DNA from: Octopus sinensis
Lineage: Eukaryota
DNA: 64,000 bases
NCBI RefSeq assembly: GCF_006345805.1
Contig: NC_043009.1
Location: 46,252,001 to 46,316,000, forward strand
Direction of reading: 5' to 3'
This document shows positions 23,960-47,800 of the stretch, piece after piece; the first letter of the stretch is position 1; each line of letters opens with the position of its first letter. The position numbers and the translations under genes were made by a program. The notes under the pieces were generated by a model that saw nothing but the letters and a program-made list of their open reading frames with translations, was not told the origin of the DNA and did no database searches.

Positions 23960-25230
23960 AGTGGGTGCTGAAAAGTTCCTGACTTTGGATAAAAGAGGTT
24001 ACAGGAGGGTCAGTTAATTATGATTTTATTCAACATATTCTTCTCAGATTCACACACTTATTGCAGCGGGCCTTCAGTTTTTCTAAGTCCTGTAAAATGA
24101 ACTCAGAAGGTTGGACCTCCCAAAAAGTCTCTGTAGCAGCGACGACTTCCGAATCGGAGTGAAATTTTGCTCCATTGAGATGTTCTATCAGTTGTGGCAA
24201 AAGGTGATAGTAGGAGGGGGCCAAGTCAGAAGAGTAAGGTGGGTCAGTCTACCATTTGAAGCGAAAGACATTTTTCCGTAGAGTTTAATGTGCTGCGTGT
24301 GCTGGTGCATTATCCTGCAAAAACAGGAGATAACGGTCAGCTTTCCACGGATTTTCCGCTTTTGAGCTTCATGCAGTCCGTCCAGCAGAGACATGTAGTA
24401 ATCAGTGTCAATGGTGCGACTCTTTGGCAGGTATTTTATGAGGACTACCCCGTTTTTGTCCCAGAACACTGAAGCCAGAATCTTTTCAGCTGACTTCTGG
24501 GTCCGAAACTTCTTGGGACGCGGTAGACCACTGTGGTGTCTCTCCATTGACTGCTGTTTGGTCTGGAGATCAAATTTATAAGCCAAGTTTCATTCATGGT
24601 AACTAAACGAGCCATACAATCAGCCTCTCCTGCTGCAAACCGGTCCAAAATCGCCTTTGATGTCGTCACTCTGACGCGCTTCTGATCTGCGTTCAAACAT
24701 TTCGGCACCCATTTTGTGGAAAGCTTTCTCATGTCCAGATTGTGAATTATGTGGCAAACTCTTTCATGTGAAATCCCCTGAGTCTCAGCCATGACGTTTG
24801 GGGAAACCCGGCGGTCCTCAAGTATCATGACGTGCACAGCGTCGGCCTTGTCCTCTATGGTCGCGGAATTTGGCCGTCTTGATAAGGGTTCATCTGTGAC
24901 CTGAAAATGACCAGTCCGAAACCTTATCACCCAGGATTTCACTGTGGAGTAAGATGGGCAACCATTCTTCAAGACATCCTTCATCTCGTCATGGATTTCC
25001 GCCGCTTTGTTTCGTATAAAGAGGAACTTCAGGATCGCTCTTGCATCAATTTTACTGAAATTCACTGTAGAAGCTACATTCATGAGTTAAATCTGCAAAA
25101 GTGAGGATATATTGTATACCATCACGATCTTTTGAATATCTTCTAAACAGTTATCCTACCTCCCCAGAAAATGTAACAGCTGTACCCTTTCGCAATACCT
25201 TTAAAGTCAGGAATTTCTCACCACCCACTC
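23960..25230 (-). mobile_element. Mariner (DD34D) transposon, full length but inactive
   Basis: TIRs AGTGGGTGCTGAAAAGTTCCTGACTTT (from 23960) and AAAGTCAGGAATTTCTCACCACCCACT (25203-25229); ~1.27 kb. Confidence 0.92.
24030..25083 (-). pseudogene. Frameshifted mariner transposase
   Basis: Motifs WVPKCL, VTMNETW (D to N), KILASVFWD, LQDNAPAH and PPYSSDLAPSYYHL (D to Y) are spread over several frames. Confidence 0.92.
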
Positions 25231-26327: not shown

Positions 26328-26916
26328 TATATATATATATATATATGATTGTGTGTGTTTGTGTGTGTATGGGTGTCTATATATCTATAGACTGCTGTCT
26401 TCTATCTCCATACAATAATTCTGTCCTTTCCCGGAATGACATGTTAAGTTTGAAGAAATTCTTGATTCTTGAGATTATCTTCCATATTATATGGAGCTGG
26501 CTATCAATTGCCGTTTTACTAATTATAAAACACCCTTTAGACGAGGAGAGAACTGGTAAATCTAGAACTTATGTTTTTTGATATTTGATATTTCTTTGTT
26601 TCTCAAGGATTTTCAAATACAAGGCACCGGCCATTTTGAGTTATATTTGTCATACATCATTTTTGTTCATACATACACACACACACACACACATATATAT
26701 CGAAAGTAAAATTTCCAAAAAGATTTCAAGGGATATATAATCCTGGCGGTTTCTGTGTTAACTCCTAGATCTGTTCTCAATGCCGGTTAACCACAGCGAA
26801 TTACAGTGATATTTGAGTTAGTGATTATTTACTGGACTCGGTTATTATCCTCGCTTGGTAAATCCGAATATCCTTTTAGGGACTGTATAGTTTCTGCAGA
26901 GAAAATAATGAAATTA

Positions 26917-27674
26917 ATGAAGATCAGAAGAATAGGAATTTGCACATCCATATTTTATTATACAGTAATTGATATCATTCTTCGCTTGGACCTGTGCCCG
27001 TTTCGGCTGCAACCGCTGCACATTGTTAAGTGTGCACCTTGGTGTTAATTATCGGTGCAGCTCCTCAGGGTCCGTTGTTTACTGTCGTTCGAAGATCATC
27101 TGGAGAAAACTATGAGACTGACTGAATATGAGTCGTTTAGGAGGTGTTGGAGTTACAATGAATATTTATATTTCCTCGTGACATGAAGATTACCTCGGCC
27201 AGTTAGGTATTTATTGCTGGGTTTGATCTTAAAATAGGTCAACGTTCCTGTGGATTCCTTAGTATTGTAGCCCAGATTACCATTCTATTATATTAGAAAT
27301 TATTCGTATTTCTAATTTAGTAGAATGGTCACATCACAAGAAAGTAGGTATATTTTAAGACAAAACCCAGCAATAAATACCAAACAGGCGGAGGTAATCT
27401 TCATGACACGAGGAAATATGACTATTCATAGTAATACCAACACCACCTGAACGACTCCTTATTCAGTCAGTCTCGTAGTTTTCTTCAGATGATCTTTGAA
27501 CGACAGTAAACAACGGACCCAGAAGGAGCTGCACTGATAATTAACACCAAGATGCACACTTGACAGTGTGCAGCGGTTGCAGCCAAAATGAACGTTGGTC
27601 CAAGTGAAGAATGATGAAAATTACTGCATAGTGAATAATATGGATGTGCAAATCGCCATTCTCCTGATATTCAT
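26917..27674. mobile_element. Older long foldback element with a decayed hammerhead in each arm
   Basis: ~320-bp diverged inverted arms 26917-27236/27351-27674, a central hairpin at 27279-27329, and hammerhead-like folds at 26988-27073 (minus) and 27515-27601 (plus). Confidence 0.8.
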
Positions 27675-27682
27675 CACATATT

Positions 27683-27780
<98 letters not shown>

Positions 27781-27925
27781 ATATGTATGTATGTATATAT
27801 ATGTGTGTGTATGTATATGTTTGTATTTATGTATATGCATGTATTATATGTAAGAAATTGGAATGTAGATGATATCTGCTTACTGTATGATATATATATA
27901 TATATATTAGGACAGTATTATTAAT

Positions 27926-27931
27926 TTTATT
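27926..27931 (-). promoter_or_regulatory. Candidate polyadenylation signal AATAAA
   Basis: TTTATT on plus, ~630 nt downstream of the stop. The motif is common in AT-rich DNA. Confidence 0.3.
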
Positions 27932-28559
27932 TTATCTAGTTTCAGCTCACGGGCTGTGGCCATGCTGGGGCCATGCAGAATAATTGTGTTATATTCACAG
28001 GATGAAGGAAATGCACTTTGTGTGTGTGTGTCGCTTGGAAACAAGCGTAGAAGAAAATATAAATTGTTGATTAAATAATTTCACCACACTGGACACTTCT
28101 ATTAATATTTTATGATCCTTGATGTTGTGAGAGACTCAGTAAATGTGATATCTCACCTTCCCCTTTCTGATACAAGGGGATTAGTAACCACAATGTAAGC
28201 ATCGCATTATCATCTGCAAAGATAAAGACCGATCAAGAAGTTAAATATCACGAGATAACATACAGGTACACGTGCTTTCTGTCACACAGAACATATATGT
28301 GATGCACCACAACATTTGTTTAGTAGTTCTATATCCAGAGTTTCATATATCAAACAATAATTGTTGGAATAAGTGAGTGCTAATATAAGCATTTGAAGTG
28401 TGTGCATTTATACAAGAGTATGAAAGCGATATTGCGTCTACATATGAGATTTTTGTTTTCTGCTGAGAGATTTGATGGCAATTTCTTTTAATATCAAATT
28501 AATAGTTACAGTTAAAATCTTTTTTAAAAATACCATTGTTTTTCTTTCTTTTTTTTTTT

Positions 28560-29462
28560 TTAAGTGGTCACTTCTTCGTTTATGATATCAATGTGTGCAA
28601 GCGGTTTTTTATCGTTTTTCGGAACATGACGTTTTGTCGTGTCGCTAAGGTTTATTATCGTTTCCAAACATCTGTTTGTAGGCATCGTCGTTTGGTGTTG
28701 GCATTTCATGTGTGATAAATTCGCTTGCAAAGGTATCATTTCTGATATTTCGTCACTTCTTTTCGGATTAGAAAGATGACCATCGGTGAATGCCAACAAA
28801 GCACCCGTTGTAGGTTTCATCTGTAGGATGTTCTGAGTTGCATGACAACAATTTTCATCCGGAAACGCGTTATTATAGTCATTCGATGCTGTCAAAGGCA
28901 TGGTTTTATTTGTATGAAACGCAGTCAGGCAAGAAGCTGCTGATGGTGTGGCTCCAATCCCAAGCCCTGGTACCACCTCATTGAAACTATGTTCATTACA
29001 GTTAGAGATGTTTGCTAAACAGCAATGGTGTACTGCCTGGTTAAATTGTGGTATATTGTTTGTAGCTGTATTGAGCGAGCTTGTTGTCGGACCAACTATC
29101 GCACAATTACTCGAGTTAGCACCACCGCTGTTGTTATTTAGATACATGTTTGTGGTGATTGTATTCATTTTATTAAGTATTTTTTCTCGGCGATCTTTTT
29201 TTCTAAGGAGTGCCATTTCCTTAAGATATGTTCGTAGCTGATTATCTTGTTGATTTTTTCTGATATGTGAAGCAATCATTAACACAATAGAAAACCCGTA
29301 TATAAATATAACAGCGACAACATAATAAAGGGAACCTATATTGTCAACGTCTTCTTGCATTGATAGGGTGTAGTTGAGCGTTGATTCTTCTGTGGCTACA
29401 GTCGATTGTTTCATCAGGGAACTGTTCAACGAAAGGTTAGCGCCAGTTAGCGGAATACCCAT
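28560..29462 (-). CDS. Single-pass membrane protein, 300 aa, with KCNE/MinK-like transmembrane region
   Basis: The only long non-repeat ORF. Kozak-like acaatcATGG, in-frame upstream TAA at 29523-29525, and an upstream splice acceptor. N-terminal sequons NLS, NSS, NYT; TM LYYVVAVIFIYGFSIVLMIA; basic juxtamembrane SHIRKN...YLKEMALLRKK. Confidence 0.82.
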   Translation of the reverse strand: MGIPLTGANLSLNSSLMKQSTVATEESTLNYTLSMQEDVDNIGSLYYVVAVIFIYGFSIVLMIASHIRKNQQDNQLRTYLKEMALLRKKDRREKILNKMNTITTNMYLNNNSGGANSSNCAIVGPTTSSLNTATNNIPQFNQAVHHCCLANISNCNEHSFNEVVPGLGIGATPSAASCLTAFHTNKTMPLTASNDYNNAFPDENCCHATQNILQMKPTTGALLAFTDGHLSNPKRSDEISEMIPLQANLSHMKCQHQTTMPTNRCLETIINLSDTTKRHVPKNDKKPLAHIDIINEEVTT

Positions 29463-29539
29463 GATTGTCTTGTAGAAGATCTCACAATCTTTACTGCAAA
29501 TTATTTGGTTACGTACAGCTGTTTAATCCGACCAGTTGA

Positions 29540-29565
29540 CTGGAAAAGAAAGAAAAGAAAATGTA
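29540..29565 (-). promoter_or_regulatory. 3' splice acceptor with polypyrimidine tract for the coding exon
   Basis: Minus strand reads CATTTTCTTTTCTTTCTTTTCCAG|TCAACTG. The exon would start at 29539, 77 nt before the ATG. Confidence 0.75.
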
Positions 29566-29663
29566 AAAGATATGAAGTATCAATGAAATAAAATAAGAAA
29601 CGAATGAAATTAAGAACATTAGCAAGATATATTTATTGAAATGAAGGAGGGCGTTGTGACTAT

Positions 29664-29894
29664 GGTAGCGAGCTGGTAGAAACGTTAGCACGCCGGGCGA
29701 AATGCTTAGCGGTATTTCGTCTGCGTTACGTTGTGAGTTCAAATTCCGCCGAGGTCGACTTTGCCTTTCATCCTTTCGGGGTCGATAAATTAAGTACCAG
29801 TTACGCACTGGGGTCGATGTAATCGACTTAATACCTATGTCTGTCTTTGTTTGTCCCCCTCTGTGTTTAGCCCCTTGTGGGTAATAAAGAAATA
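29664..29894 (+). mobile_element. SINE family B
   Basis: Aligns to 6092-6317. Confidence 0.9.
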
Positions 29895-30662
29895 GGTATA
29901 CTTGGACTGGCTGAGCCCAGTTATTGATAACATTCCGCTGAAATTATTGCAAGCAGTATGAAAATCATGTTGAGGGAAGATTGACATTGTGGAAAGACTT
30001 TGGAAACGAAGGACAGGACATGATGCAGGTTTGGGGAGGATTGAATATCGATTACTAGAGGAGAGACGTCTGAGTCGGGAGAGCTTGTGTAAACGTAGCT
30101 CCAGATCAATCAGCATCTCGAGCAGAGGACGATATAGTAGAGTGATAAACGATAGTGAGATGATATAGCACGTCTGTGATAAAGAGGCAGGAGAACGCAT
30201 GTAAACAATTTCATTTCAGTCTGTCAGGTGGCTTTTCTTAGGATATGGTCTATATTAGTGTGTCTACAGCAGCCTTGCCATCATGTGAAAGCAGCACACA
30301 TTTTGAGTTTTGTTCCTATGAGGCCTTAGTGATGACTAAACTATTGTCTGGATCTACATAAAAAATATTGGTTCTTACTGTTCACCTTCTGCGCAGAAAT
30401 GAAACTTTAAGCAACAATTTATAAAAATTTAGATATAAATAATATTGTAATCGACAGTCATATATATAGTTCTCAATTTCTCAGTTGTATGTTAATATAT
30501 ACAATTACGTAGGAAAATATTTATATAAAATCTTGAAAATTCTGATATTCTTCACAAAGGAGCCAAACATTTTCCTCCTCTCCAAGTCCAAATCATTTAC
30601 TGGAACAAAGAATATTTTCGAAACACTGCAAAGCTACTCTATTGAGTTATCTAGACTCAAGG

Positions 30663-30733
<71 letters not shown>

Positions 30734-30762
30734 ATCTATCTATCTATCTATCTATCTATATC

Positions 30763-30807
<45 letters not shown>

Positions 30808-30835
30808 ATATATATACATTTATACATATACATAC

Positions 30836-30890
<55 letters not shown>

Positions 30891-30899
30891 ATATATATA

Positions 30900-31195
30900 T
30901 AATATTAATTAGAGACAAAACCACTATTTTGTAAAACAAACAAGGAAAAACTTAATCAATACATAAAATTTTAATAAAAAGTAAAAAATAAAAAGTATTT
31001 ATTTTTTACTTTTTTTTACTTTTTTTTATTTTTTATTAAAATTTTATGTATTGATTAAGTCTTTCCTTGTTTGTTTTACAAAATAGTAGTTTTGTCTCTA
31101 ATTAATATTATTTAATATTTTACTATAAAATTGGATTTAATCCTAAATCTGATTTTTTCCCTGTAAATTTGGATTTATTCCCTAATATTTATTAT

Positions 31196-44821: not shown

Positions 44822-47800
44822 ATGGGGTAAGCTTAGCTTACCCTATGGGTAGGTAGCAGCCCTTTAACCTTGGTTGGTAATCTACCTAGGAGAAGGAAAT
44901 CTCTGAAATAAAACCTGAGGCCCTGGAAGTTCCTGGTTTTGTCAATTTTCATGCCACACCGGCGAAATTCTTCTTGGGCCAATAGGTGGGGGTATTGCCG
45001 TGCAAGCTACACCCACTGAAAATTATTCATCTGCACAGGTACTTCCTGTACACCAAATCTTAGTAATATCATTGAATTGGTTGGTTGGCAGAAACCTAAA
45101 AATGCACATGTAACTTACTCTAAAGTGTCTCAAACAGATTCAGTAAATGGCAAAAAAGGCTTGGGAACGTCAGGTCTGGCTCGGCAGGTGTCCCAGTATA
45201 TTACAGACATGTCCCGGACGTCATTCTGCCGCTGTGGTCAAATAATTTTCAAGATGTAAAAATAGACATCCTTTGAATTTTGGCTGTTAGTAATATGCGC
45301 ACACTTCTTGATGATAATTTCAACAAGAGGCCTAGAAAGATGTACTTTACTTATTGCATATGAGCTTAAGAAATATTCCCTTTATATGGTTGCGCTCTCT
45401 GAAACTTGTCTCTCTGGTGAGGGTCAAGTAAATGAACCTACTTATGGATACACTATCTTTTGGAGAGGATTACCTAAGGGTCAGCGTAGAGAATCTGGTA
45501 TTGCGTTTGCTCTCAAGAATAGTATCCTCCATTGCAGTGCTTCCAAGTGGTATATCTGAACGGACCATGCCATGCCGTATTAAACTGACAAAAGGTAGGT
45601 TTCTTACCATTGTCAGTATTTATGCACCAACGATGTCCCATTCTGATGAAACTGTAGGACAGTTTTATGATGATCTAGCACAATTATTGAAGAAAGTACC
45701 AATTTCTGACAAGCAGGTCCTATTTGGAGATTTCAATGCAAGAACTGGAAAGGATTACGTTTCATGGCCTGTTTTAGGTCGAGATAGGATTGGAAAATAT
45801 AATGAAAATGGAGTAGCGCTTTTGACATTTTGTGCTGAGAAAAATCTGGTTGTCAACAACACTCTGTTTAAGCAGAAAAATAAATATAAAACTACCTGGA
45901 TGCACCCAAGATCTAAGCACTAGCATCTCACACATTATATTTTGATCAGAAAACGTGATATGAAAGACGTTTCTAGCTTTCGGGTCATGTGTGGAAAAAT
46001 AGATTTTTCGATAACGCTCAAAAATCAACAGTCTGGTCCTAAGGTATCCAAAAAGGTAAATGTTGCAAGCTTTAAATTATCAAGTAACTTGCTAAGATTC
46101 CAATATGCTATAGAAAGTTTCAGACTTGACCCAAACAATCTATGAGAAGATTTCAAAACAAAAGTATTTCAATTATTTCAGGCTGCAATCACACAAGTCT
46201 AGTGACTGGCTCTCAGATAGATCAACAGAAATTCATGATCTACTTTTAGAAAAACAAAACGTAGGCAATACACTTCTTCCTCAGTCCTTGAAGCCCAACT
46301 CAAACGAAGCTTACAGAAAGCTGAAAAAGAAAGTGCAGACTGCTCTAAGGAAAATTAAACAGGAATGGTGGAATGATAGAGCAAAAGGGGTACGTGAAGC
46401 AGCTCATACTTTTATGTTAAGGAGATATATGGCCGAAAATCTTCTTTAATAGCTCCAGTGACAACAGCAAATAGACGTTTGCGTCTGACTGACACCGCTT
46501 CTATTCATAAGTGCTAGGTAGAACATTTTTCTGCACTTTTGAATATACCATCATCCACTGACATGAGGACGATAGTAAAAATCGAACACCTTCCAGTTAC
46601 AGAAGAGATGGCATTTGAACCAACTCTAGATTACCCATTTATTTAGCTGTGAATAAGCTGAATAACAATAAGTCTCCAGAGTCTAATGGAATCTGTGCAG
46701 AAGACTTGAAATATAGGAATGACAAAATGTTTGAACTTTTAAATATATTAATTTGTTACTGTTGGAGAACTAAGAAAGTGCCCCAAGACTGGATTGATGC
46801 CATTTTAGTCTTCTTGTATAAATCGGGGCCAAAGAATCTACGTGGTAATTTTCGTGGGATTTCGCTTTTGTCTGTTGTCGGAAAGGTACTTGCCCGCATT
46901 TTTTTAGAAGGCTTAAATACCTTCAGAGTTCCAAATATAGTGTCTAAGTCTCAGTGTGGTTTTCGTTCCTCCAGGGGCACAGATGGTTGTATCTTTACTA
47001 TCAGACAATTACAACGAAAGTGCATTGAACAGAATCTTGCTCTATACCATTGCTGTGATTATTTGAGGAAAGCATTCGATACTGTTATTCGAAATGCTCT
47101 GTGGCTGATTCTAAGGAAAATATGTTACCCAGAAAAAATTGTAATCATGATCAGGGCTTTGCACCAAGATATGAAAGCTAGAGTTAACTTTGGTTGTAGG
47201 CTCTCTGAATCTTTTGCCGTGGAAAATAAAATAAAGCAAGGAGACCTTGATGCACCCACCCTCTTTGCAATATACTTTGCTGTTGTGTTGTCATATGCTT
47301 TTCAAAACTCTGAGGTGGGTATTTACATAAAATATTGAACAATTGGGAATATTTTAAATCTGACTAGACTGAAATTCAAAACGAAGGTTTTTACTCAACT
47401 CATTTTGGAACTTTTATACGATGACGATTGCGATCTTGTCATTCATTCTGAAACAGGTCTGCAATCTCTTGTATCTGCATTTGACTCAGCTTGTGATGAT
47501 TTTGGCTTGGTTAATGCATCAACCTGCGTATGTTTCTGTTTATAACCCTGCTAAAATCTTTGTTAAGGGTAAGTTACTTGAGGTTGTCGATTCGTTCATC
47601 TACCCTAGAAGCTCTGTACAAAATGATAGAAATCTTGATACAGAAATACAGCTGCGAACTCAGGACAGCAAAAGCATTTAGTGGCTTGGAGTCACGCGTT
47701 TGGTGCCAGTGACATATAAATAAGAATACAAAACTGGCTCTTTACAAATCATTTGTCTTGCCATCCCTGTTGTATTCTTGTGAAACATGAACTTGTTATG

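Follow-up and report, generated by a model that had tools for sequence, protein, structure and literature searches.

The window analyzed here, a stretch of 64,000 nucleotides of the Octopus sinensis genome, contains on its minus strand a 300-aa ORF at 28560..29462. The ORF list and the translation identify it as a complete coding sequence (CDS) of 300 codons plus the stop codon TAA (28560-28562), and its location, strand and sequence agree with those given in the original prediction, which had been made from this DNA alone. An in-frame stop codon (29523-29525) lies upstream of the ATG (29462) in the same exon, with the frame opening at 29522, and therefore fixes M1 as the start. Contigs from three studies (X1 rec2, X5 rec20 and X11 rec10), whose RNA nature is presumed as a guess, all cease to fit exactly at 29539; their 356, 442 and 30 further letters, respectively, are located elsewhere. 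The sequence together with these breaks marks a 3' splice acceptor at 29540..29580 on the minus strand, in which the AG (29541-29540) follows a polypyrimidine tract. The exon starts at 29539, and the entire CDS lies within this one terminal exon, as had been proposed: the upstream in-frame stop, the AG acceptor and the contig breaks together confine it there. The 5' UTR portion of the exon occupies 29463..29539 on the minus strand, as defined by the stop-to-stop frame and the contig fits. The 3' UTR, on the same strand, extends at least over 27984..28559 according to X11 rec10, which spans 27984-29539 (X5 rec20 spans 28136-29539); a repeat begins at about 27970. The gene is single-copy, genome searches with the cores of three different subfamilies having found this locus only, and it is most likely expressed. 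A Pfam search of the 14 other long ORFs of the window found transposon relics only.

Five segments can be distinguished in the protein, all encoded on the minus strand. Residues 1-42 (29337..29462) form a short acidic N-terminal ectodomain, predicted to lie outside, with sequons at N9, N13 and N30; the sequence N30-Y-T (29367..29375) is the sequon closest to the transmembrane (TM) helix. The TM helix, GSLYYVVAVIFIYGFSIVLMIASHI, comprises residues 43-67 (29262..29336), as indicated by hydropathy and AlphaFold2. It is followed by a basic juxtamembrane region (residues 68-110, 29133..29261), for which AlphaFold2 gives a short break at R68-K69-N70, followed by a long helix that includes D73 and Y79. 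Residues 111-289 (28596..29132) constitute an Asn/Thr/Cys-rich tail, predicted from pLDDT to be disordered and, according to the alignment, kept within cephalopods only. The alignment also defines a conserved C-terminal motif at residues 290-300 (28563..28595), which reads HIDIINEEVTT in octopus and ..VINENxPL in its family form.

The protein has one hydrophobic segment, the best 19-residue Kyte-Doolittle windows beginning at residues 41-50, and the same analysis found in it no second segment fit for a signal peptide. AlphaFold2 predicts helices at residues 41-67 (pLDDT 91-96) and 71-110 (pLDDT 88-97) and disorder outside them, with pLDDT mostly below 50 in the tail. Residues 101-300 hold 26 N, 24 T and 9 C per 200, and six sequons are found in the tail in addition to the three N-terminal ones. 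The initial description, that is, no signal peptide, three N-terminal sequons, one TM helix and a tail of about 200 residues rich in Asn, Thr and Cys, is thus borne out. An N-out/C-in topology is predicted from the sequence because the helix is preceded by an acidic N-terminus carrying a conserved sequon and followed by a strongly basic stretch.

Relatives of the protein are numerous: 41 were found by a single-protein search and 117 by a profile search (all with E≤8e-14), while 252 representative clusters were collected at E≤1e-3, all of them matching query residues from about 5 to 208 with a core at 35-105. The closest is O. bimaculoides LOC106868424, with 98% identity; the Argonauta counterpart is 71% identical overall, the tail being included in the alignment. 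The core shows 65-80% identity across cephalopods, bivalves and gastropods, and no alignment was obtained between the octopus tail and the bivalve or gastropod relatives. Forty eight family members carry an organism name, and all of these are spiralian: 42 molluscs, four annelids, one nemertean and one brachiopod. The ORF is therefore conserved, as the original prediction would have it, and is indeed present in cephalopods; its presentation as a cephalopod member has to be widened, since the family is no cephalopod peculiarity. The family is unnamed, has no Pfam model and is uncharacterised. Six gene identifiers of its members were not found mentioned in papers, and among the papers listed by a literature search there was none on KCNE in molluscs or annelids.

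The possibility of a chance ORF or of a mis-annotated non-coding transcript may be considered at this point, as the tail has a low-complexity look. Nothing else speaks for such an origin, while the interspecies identity of the core, its recurrence in 252 clusters and the spliced contigs argue against it, as does the pattern of substitutions: three of the four CDS differences between two close species are synonymous. Conservation rules this explanation out, and its probability is next to nil. The gene for a conserved single-pass membrane protein is real.

The conserved part comprises only about 60 residues, namely D40, G43, the TM helix and the basic juxtamembrane helix with D73 and Y79, to which the C-terminal motif is added. 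Y47 and S65 never vary among 111 representatives; G43 and I59 are kept in 110, V51 in 109, V48 in 108, S58 in 107 and I63 in 105; D73 is found in 110 of the 111, and Y79 in 107 of 110. A single TM segment is seen in 209 of 223 members. A sequon precedes the TM helix in 211 of the 214 full-length members, in most cases 18-20 residues ahead of the conserved Gly; in alignment A1 the membrane-proximal sequon of most relatives sits in a column neighboring N30 and not under N30 itself. The C-terminal residue is L or V in 155 of the 214 full-length members, and the three cephalopod forms end in T.

That a core of some 60 residues is almost frozen across four spiralian phyla indicates an obligate membrane partner. 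Conservation along the TM helix has a period of 100 degrees (permutation p 0.024, 111 representatives), and conserved residues cover some three quarters of its circumference. The face formed by Y47, V48, V51, Y55, S58, I59, I63 and S65 would be the surface against which a conserved partner packs a helix of its own. One could also suppose that the partner is a second copy of the same protein: it would form a homo-oligomer via the helix face, or act as a signaling adaptor whose tail and C-terminal motif recruit PDZ or other cytoplasmic proteins, and no multi-pass partner would be involved. The polar and aromatic helix residues (Y46, Y47, Y55, S58, S65), the small-residue pair G43-A44, a long juxtamembrane helix potentially capable of coiled-coil formation and, in most members, a hydrophobic C-terminus of the T/S-x-L/V type are all compatible with this. 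However, conservation over three quarters of the circumference, instead of along a single stripe, is easier to reconcile with burial in a larger assembly, and we consider self-association unlikely. The octopus protein is probably an accessory subunit.

The original prediction had gone further and named a KCNE/MinK-like potassium-channel beta subunit. The Pfam family in question is ISK_Channel (PF02060), with a cut-off of 22.1 bits. A Pfam search did not confirm membership: the octopus protein has no ISK_Channel match at E≤10, and no family member reaches the cut-off, the best being P0336 with 19.1 bits (E 0.0011). ISK_Channel is nevertheless the commonest sub-threshold Pfam family, with 19 of 111 members matching at E≤1; other sets gave 4/20 at E≤10, 7/38 at E≤0.5 and 7/110 at E≤0.02, and among distant members just one of 24 had a match at E≤0.2. 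The register of the matches with E≤0.02 is constant, the family residue Gly43 falling at profile position ~43-44. Across the whole genome, PF02060 yielded six weak matches (E≥0.09), all outside the window; five of the six contain stop codons.

Family members were also searched with phmmer against 177,635 PDB sequences. All matches of three members were KCNE chains, with E from 0.028 to 0.58: four of four for P0336 (KCNE1/2, best E 0.095), four of four for P0326 (KCNE3, best E 0.028) and six of six for P0253 (KCNE1/3, best E 0.078). P0265 matched KCNE1 at E 0.55-1.0, ranked under cactin and SHP2. These four proteins had been chosen for their best ISK scores, so that their PDB matches represent the same signal and not a second one; P0276, chosen without this bias, found no KCNE in PDB, and there was no KCNE among the three PDB matches of the octopus protein. 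The KCNE1 segment quoted in the original prediction agrees with KCNE1 residues 43-83 in PDB chains, and phmmer, run with relatives of the octopus protein, recovers the proposed local alignment (LY-V, GF, S-x-I-R, an acidic residue, Y). The pairs between family and KCNE1 are G56/G55, S65-x-I67-R68/S64-x-I66-R67, D73/E72 and Y79/Y81.

With profiles, the full-length A1 and A5 found no KCNE chain in PDB at E≤10, and the core profile A6 found KCNE2 at E 0.046, KCNE3 at 0.76 and KCNE1 at 1.6. The same profile placed the unrelated mitochondrial complex I subunit NDUFB11 ahead of KCNE2, with E 0.02-0.36 in ten rows, which means that such scores can come from the composition of the TM helix. As these chains are the top PDB matches of the core profile and the corresponding Pfam family ESSS (PF10183) also recurs weakly (6/20 and 4/111 members), the octopus protein might be taken for a diverged copy of NDUFB11, which is likewise single-pass and, like the octopus family, has 'YD' preceding the helix and 'GFSIVL..GS' as part of it. 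Yet the octopus protein reaches 13.2 bits (E 0.11) with ESSS, whose cut-off is 22.8; two neighboring pieces on C11 match better (24.1 and 23.6 bits) and cover profile positions 39-112, and none of the seven genome-wide ESSS matches at E≤1 lies in the window. Moreover, the match does not extend past the helix. The octopus family has a long tail, and its conserved sequon fits the secretory pathway and not a mitochondrial presequence. This origin is very improbable.

LMBR1 (PF04791) is another weak match, within molluscs a stronger one than ISK_Channel, shared by 30 of 38 mollusc-type members (best E 3e-4, 20.2 bits versus a cut-off of 31.9) and vanishing in distant ones (0/24 and 2/111). The matches always start at profile position 173 and reflect the succession of a helix and a charged cytoplasmic helix. 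LMBR1 proteins have about nine TM helices and the octopus protein only one; as the scores also stay below the 31.9-bit cut-off, LMBR1 identity was rejected.

Protein language-model comparisons in the ESM Atlas lean toward KCNE. For residues 1-110 of the octopus protein, the three nearest clusters carry ISK_Channel on 40%, 13% and 25% of their members, with scores of 0.89-0.87 and 191-178 shared features, below the 0.9 bar of the tool. For P0326, the score reaches 0.93 with a 'KCNE4' cluster (93% ISK_Channel), and ISK_Channel is present on 13 of the 30 matches. Other single-pass families, SRTM1, C10orf105 and TMIE, score below the KCNE clusters.

Vertebrate KCNE1/2 are located near RCAN1; synteny of this type is absent in octopus, which has its calcipressin matches on C2 and C9495 and none on C13. 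The octopus genome has three KCNQ_channel loci, on C4, C2 and C21, which are candidate partners. A complex model of four copies of the O. bimaculoides KCNQ TM domain (P0131, 78-312) with residues 38-95 scored 0.00; it was made without alignments and without controls and carries no weight either way.

On this evidence, KCNE homology is not proven, and the caution expressed at the outset, that it was deduced from a short hydrophobic alignment, still holds. The designation as a KCNE/MinK-like beta subunit stands as to the build of the protein and the commonest weak Pfam match, and is not supported as to scores, none being over the cut-off and NDUFB11 equaling KCNE2. A rival view, which we regard as doubtful and still have to take seriously, is that of a conserved spiralian single-pass protein without kinship to KCNE, which would be the accessory, assembly or trafficking subunit for a different multi-pass membrane protein, be it a channel of another type, a transporter or a receptor. 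Its likeness to KCNE would then be of a kind common to all N-out single-pass proteins that have a basic stop-transfer stretch. The conservation pattern requires a partner and does not name it, every KCNE score is sub-threshold, DUF5305 and EMC3_TMCO1 recur as weak matches along with LMBR1, and neither P0276 nor the octopus protein finds KCNE in PDB; the long tail and the C-terminal motif with its prevalent L or V end are not known as KCNE features. Against a lack of relationship speaks the fact that of 24,736 Pfam families it is ISK_Channel that recurs most across divergent subfamilies, and in the same register, that the PDB matches of three members are all KCNE chains, and that the named language-model neighbors are KCNE clusters.

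The reading we favor, tentatively and at somewhat less than even confidence, is that the octopus protein belongs to a spiralian single-pass family of KCNE-like accessory subunits whose near-invariant TM helix would dock on a partner with several membrane passes; a voltage-gated K+ channel is the most plausible candidate. In such a complex, the basic amphipathic juxtamembrane helix may lie at the inner leaflet and touch cytoplasmic parts of the partner, lipid or calmodulin, as in KCNE4, and the C-terminal motif, with its L or V end in most members, might serve sorting or PDZ-type scaffolding. That the partner would be a channel of the Kv/KCNQ type, and the family a remote relative of KCNE, is the weakest step of the proposal. 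A more far-reaching version, which we hold possible with greater reserve, is that the spiralian family is the protostome counterpart of KCNE: KCNE-type subunits would date to the bilaterian ancestor instead of being a vertebrate invention, and one ancient, extremely constrained copy, retained in spiralians, would tune KCNQ/Kv currents in excitable and epithelial cells of molluscs and annelids.

The single-copy gene of this unnamed family provides a concrete KCNE-like candidate from outside chordates. If modulation of KCNQ/Kv channels is true, the origin of KCNE-type regulation would become older by hundreds of millions of years, and work on potassium currents in cephalopods, Aplysia and Lymnaea would gain a missing subunit. 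If there is no such modulation, a strongly constrained orphan family is still at hand, and its partner is worth seeking.

The known proteins with which the family invites comparison are KCNE1-6 of vertebrates and KCNE0 of lamprey (Pfam ISK_Channel), accessory subunits of KCNQ1 and other Kv channels, whose genes have their coding sequence in a single exon. The octopus protein has the same build: it is single-pass and predicted to be N-out, has no cleaved signal peptide, carries sequons in the N-terminal ectodomain and is encoded by a single-exon CDS. KCNE proteins and the spiralian family share the sequence S-x-I-R-x-K after the TM helix and, further on, an acidic residue and a conserved Tyr, and the helical juxtamembrane region of KCNE recurs in the AlphaFold2 model of the octopus protein. 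The differences are also clear. The TM helix of the spiralian family is far more conserved than is known for the KCNE paralogs. KCNE proteins are not known to have a long tail or a conserved hydrophobic C-terminal motif, whereas the spiralian proteins have a disordered tail of 100-600 aa and, in most members, an end of the VINENxPL type. In contrast to KCNE of vertebrates and lamprey, the octopus family is known only from spiralians. Among invertebrates, the C. elegans proteins MPS-1 to MPS-4 are MiRP/KCNE-like subunits of KVS-1. They are described as single-pass accessory subunits with a disordered cytosolic domain (PMC4210162, PMC13516689), and one of these sources calls the MPS proteins nematode-specific (PMC13516689). 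Compared by description only, they and the octopus family are both invertebrate and single-pass; in the ESM Atlas, the fourth nearest cluster of P0326, with a score of 0.92, is a nematode cluster that carries no name.

The minus-strand open reading frame at window positions 28560..29462 is as quoted in the original prediction and runs over 300 codons from ATG to stop. An in-frame stop codon 60 bases upstream of the ATG (29523-29525) closes the reading frame, and just upstream of it the minus strand reads as a 3' splice acceptor, with a polypyrimidine tract and the AG at 29541-29540. The stretch is present in 20 public sequencing runs, 14 small ones being presumed RNA by guess; contigs from four of these 14 were aligned to window positions 26501-30900. 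On the minus strand, three of these contigs, which come from three studies and two closely related organisms (X1 rec2, X5 rec20 and X11 rec10, named by run and record), all match as far as 29539, precisely the base that follows the acceptor AG. Past this point they continue for 356, 442 and 30 letters, respectively, which match nowhere on 26501-30900. Contigs of genomic DNA, if from the same species, would continue into the intron; we therefore read 29539 as a splice junction, beyond which lie one or more upstream 5' UTR exons. As the in-frame stop lies in the same exon as the ATG, M1 is the start and the coding sequence is confined to one exon, as had been proposed; the gene is spliced, its entire coding sequence being in the last exon. 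A second, closely related organism shows four differences in the coding sequence, three synonymous and one, I122M, in the tail.

Contig coverage extends the 3' UTR (minus strand) to at least 27984. The gene's contigs stop in a repeated element just past it (27824-27970, contig depth 690-2300), and the transcript may extend further. Within the intron immediately 5' of the exon lies a very high-copy element (29590-30030), by its look a SINE-type repeat, which has a summed contig depth of 4e5 to 1.1e6 in four presumed RNA runs and is fused to other sequence in many contigs. Elsewhere in the window, a 213-aa open frame with a Mos1/mariner transposase HTH domain (24448-25086, minus strand; PF17906, E 3e-7) looks like a transposon relic, and two plus-strand open frames (45432-47335) look like a LINE-type relic: they match a reverse transcriptase (PF00078, E 3e-11) and, below cut-off, an endonuclease (PF14529, E 2e-4).

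The protein has the anatomy ascribed to it. A hydropathy scan finds a single strongly hydrophobic segment, where the best 19-residue windows begin at residues 41-50, and no second segment able to serve as a signal peptide; three sequons (N9, N13, N30) fall within the first 32 residues, and the 200-residue tail holds 26 Asn, 24 Thr and 9 Cys. AlphaFold2 (56 sequences) predicts helices at 41-67 and 71-110, separated by a break at R68-K69-N70, with pLDDT 88-97, and mostly below 50 outside the two helices. The acidic N-terminus and the Arg/Lys run after the helix predict an N-out, C-in topology.

A single-protein search with the octopus sequence returned 41 relatives: O. bimaculoides LOC106868424 is 98% identical and the Argonauta protein 71%, while bivalve and gastropod relatives share only residues ~38-95, at 65-80% identity. 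A profile search collected 117 proteins, none with E above 8e-14, and no further match up to E = 1. In an exhaustive phmmer search of 1.84 billion representatives, the core is retained across 252 clusters at E ≤ 1e-3 (67 at E ≤ 1e-10). That the frame is a chance ORF is barely credible against such conservation. Among 48 members carrying an organism name there are 42 molluscs, four annelids (two Dimorphilus, Capitella, Paralvinella), one nemertean (Lineus) and one brachiopod (Lingula). All source names are "uncharacterized" or "hypothetical", and none of the 173 members scanned matches a Pfam family above its own cut-off. A distinct long subfamily of 138-697 aa (P0313, P0323, P0327, P0328, P0331-P0335, P0341-P0345, P0348, P0353; the annelid Paralvinella supplies one member) shares the core GASYYVIAVVLVYGMSIVMLIASHIKR..EDKQI.KYL, along with a conserved RDSY.NLKR. 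Searches with the cores of three subfamilies show the gene to be single-copy in the octopus genome, where no copy of the long subfamily is detectable.

Among 111 representatives, Y47 and S65 are conserved in all, G43, I59 and D73 in 110, A44 and V51 in 109, V48 in 108, D40 and S58 in 107 and I63 in 105; Y79 is conserved in 107 of 110. Helix positions 49, 52-54, 57, 60 and 64 are variable, and helix conservation has its strongest periodicity at 100 degrees per residue (p 0.024 by permutation). One transmembrane segment is predicted in 209 of 223 members with the core. A sequon precedes the helix in 211 of 214 full-length members, most commonly 18-20 residues before the conserved Gly, and in 155 of the 214 the last residue is L or V (VINENVPL, -TSL, -TVL, -SSV and similar). 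The three cephalopod forms end in -VTT (octopus residues 298-300, window 28563-28571), -AIT and -VIT (P0003, P0004), so cephalopods may have lost or altered a hydrophobic C-terminal ligand. That most of the helix circumference is conserved between animals separated for over half a billion years would be accounted for best if the helix were buried against a conserved partner in the membrane; a self-associating adaptor, in which the protein would pair with itself, appears unlikely.

Several observations point to KCNE. ISK_Channel (PF02060) is the commonest sub-threshold Pfam family, found in 19 of the 111 representatives at E ≤ 1 (next, DUF5305 in 14), in 7 of 38 members and, at E ≤ 0.02, in 7 of 110; family Gly43 always falls at profile position ~43-44, helix on helix. 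Four members with ISK_Channel matches were compared by phmmer with all 177,635 distinct PDB sequences. The matches were KCNE1/KCNE2 in 4/4 for P0336 (Lingula), KCNE3 in 4/4 for P0326 and KCNE1/KCNE3 in 6/6 for P0253 (E 0.028 to 0.58), and KCNE1 in 3/12 for P0265 (E 0.55-1.0); these repeat the ISK_Channel signal, since the members were selected by their best ISK_Channel scores. The alignments to KCNE chains reproduce the local pairing with KCNE1 given in the original prediction (family/KCNE1: G56/G55, S65-x-I67-R68/S64-x-I66-R67, D73/E72, Y79/Y81), and the KCNE1 segment cited there agrees with the PDB chain. In the ESM Atlas, the clusters nearest to octopus residues 1-110 are KCNE-labelled (0.89, 0.88, 0.87, under the tool's own 0.9 bar), and P0326 scores 0.93 against each of two clusters, one in which 40% of members carry ISK_Channel and a "KCNE4" cluster in which 93% do.

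Against this evidence, the best ISK_Channel score among members is 19.1 bits, below the cut-off of 22.1, and the octopus protein has no ISK_Channel match at E ≤ 10 and no KCNE among its PDB matches. Nor is KCNE found in PDB with P0276, picked free of ISK-score bias, or at E ≤ 10 with full-length family profiles; only 1 of 24 distant members matches ISK_Channel at E ≤ 0.2. LMBR1, a stronger weak match in molluscs (30/38, best E 3e-4), disappears in distant members. A core-only profile (38 stretches, 87 positions) has its best PDB matches in NDUFB11, which is the complex I subunit ESSS (E 0.02-0.36); the E-values for KCNE2, KCNE3 and KCNE1 are 0.046, 0.76-0.88 and 1.6, respectively. Both that core and NDUFB11 have YD just before the helix and GFSIVL, then GS, inside it, an unexplained likeness that we take as chance or convergence. 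The octopus genome has a separate ESSS locus on contig C11 and the window is absent from the ESSS matches; an NDUFB11-like protein is accordingly very improbable, NDUFB11 is surely not a relative, and it can serve as an internal control, indicating that scores of the size seen with KCNE can arise from a transmembrane helix alone.

Weighing both sides, we do not file the octopus gene as a KCNE member: of the original prediction, the KCNE-like alignment and the recurrent weak ISK_Channel matches stand, while the profile assignment does not, and no other Pfam family passes either. KCNE homology of the family is somewhat doubtful. An accessory subunit of KCNE type is the best reading of the octopus protein, tentatively held and close to evenly balanced; a similar accessory role with another partner, free of KCNE kinship, is its main rival and somewhat less likely. 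A KCNE-type subunit would insert N-out with a short glycosylated ectodomain, and the conserved face of its helix would pack onto a multi-pass partner's transmembrane domain. Along the inner leaflet its basic juxtamembrane helix would touch the cytoplasmic parts of that partner, and the conserved C-terminal end would act in sorting or scaffolding. A Kv/KCNQ channel would be the most plausible candidate partner, given that the closest known type is KCNE and that the genome carries KCNQ genes. Three KCNQ C-terminal domain loci lie at C4:156403144-156403323, where the exon is 100% identical to O. bimaculoides "KQT member 1 isoform X2" (P0131), at C2:87426992-87427135 and at C21:16431137-16431307, the last holding four in-frame stops and hence a broken copy or misjoined exon.

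A literature search on KCNE in molluscs and annelids gave nothing relevant among the papers listed, and the gene identifiers of six family members are mentioned in none. The gene models are already public, annotated as uncharacterised proteins; what this analysis adds is to recognise them as a family, with its range and KCNE-like build. Among known systems, C. elegans mps-1 to mps-4 are reported to be nematode-specific and only "sometimes described as KCNE-like" (PMC13516689), and MPS-1 is described as a single-pass partner of KVS-1 (PMC4210162).
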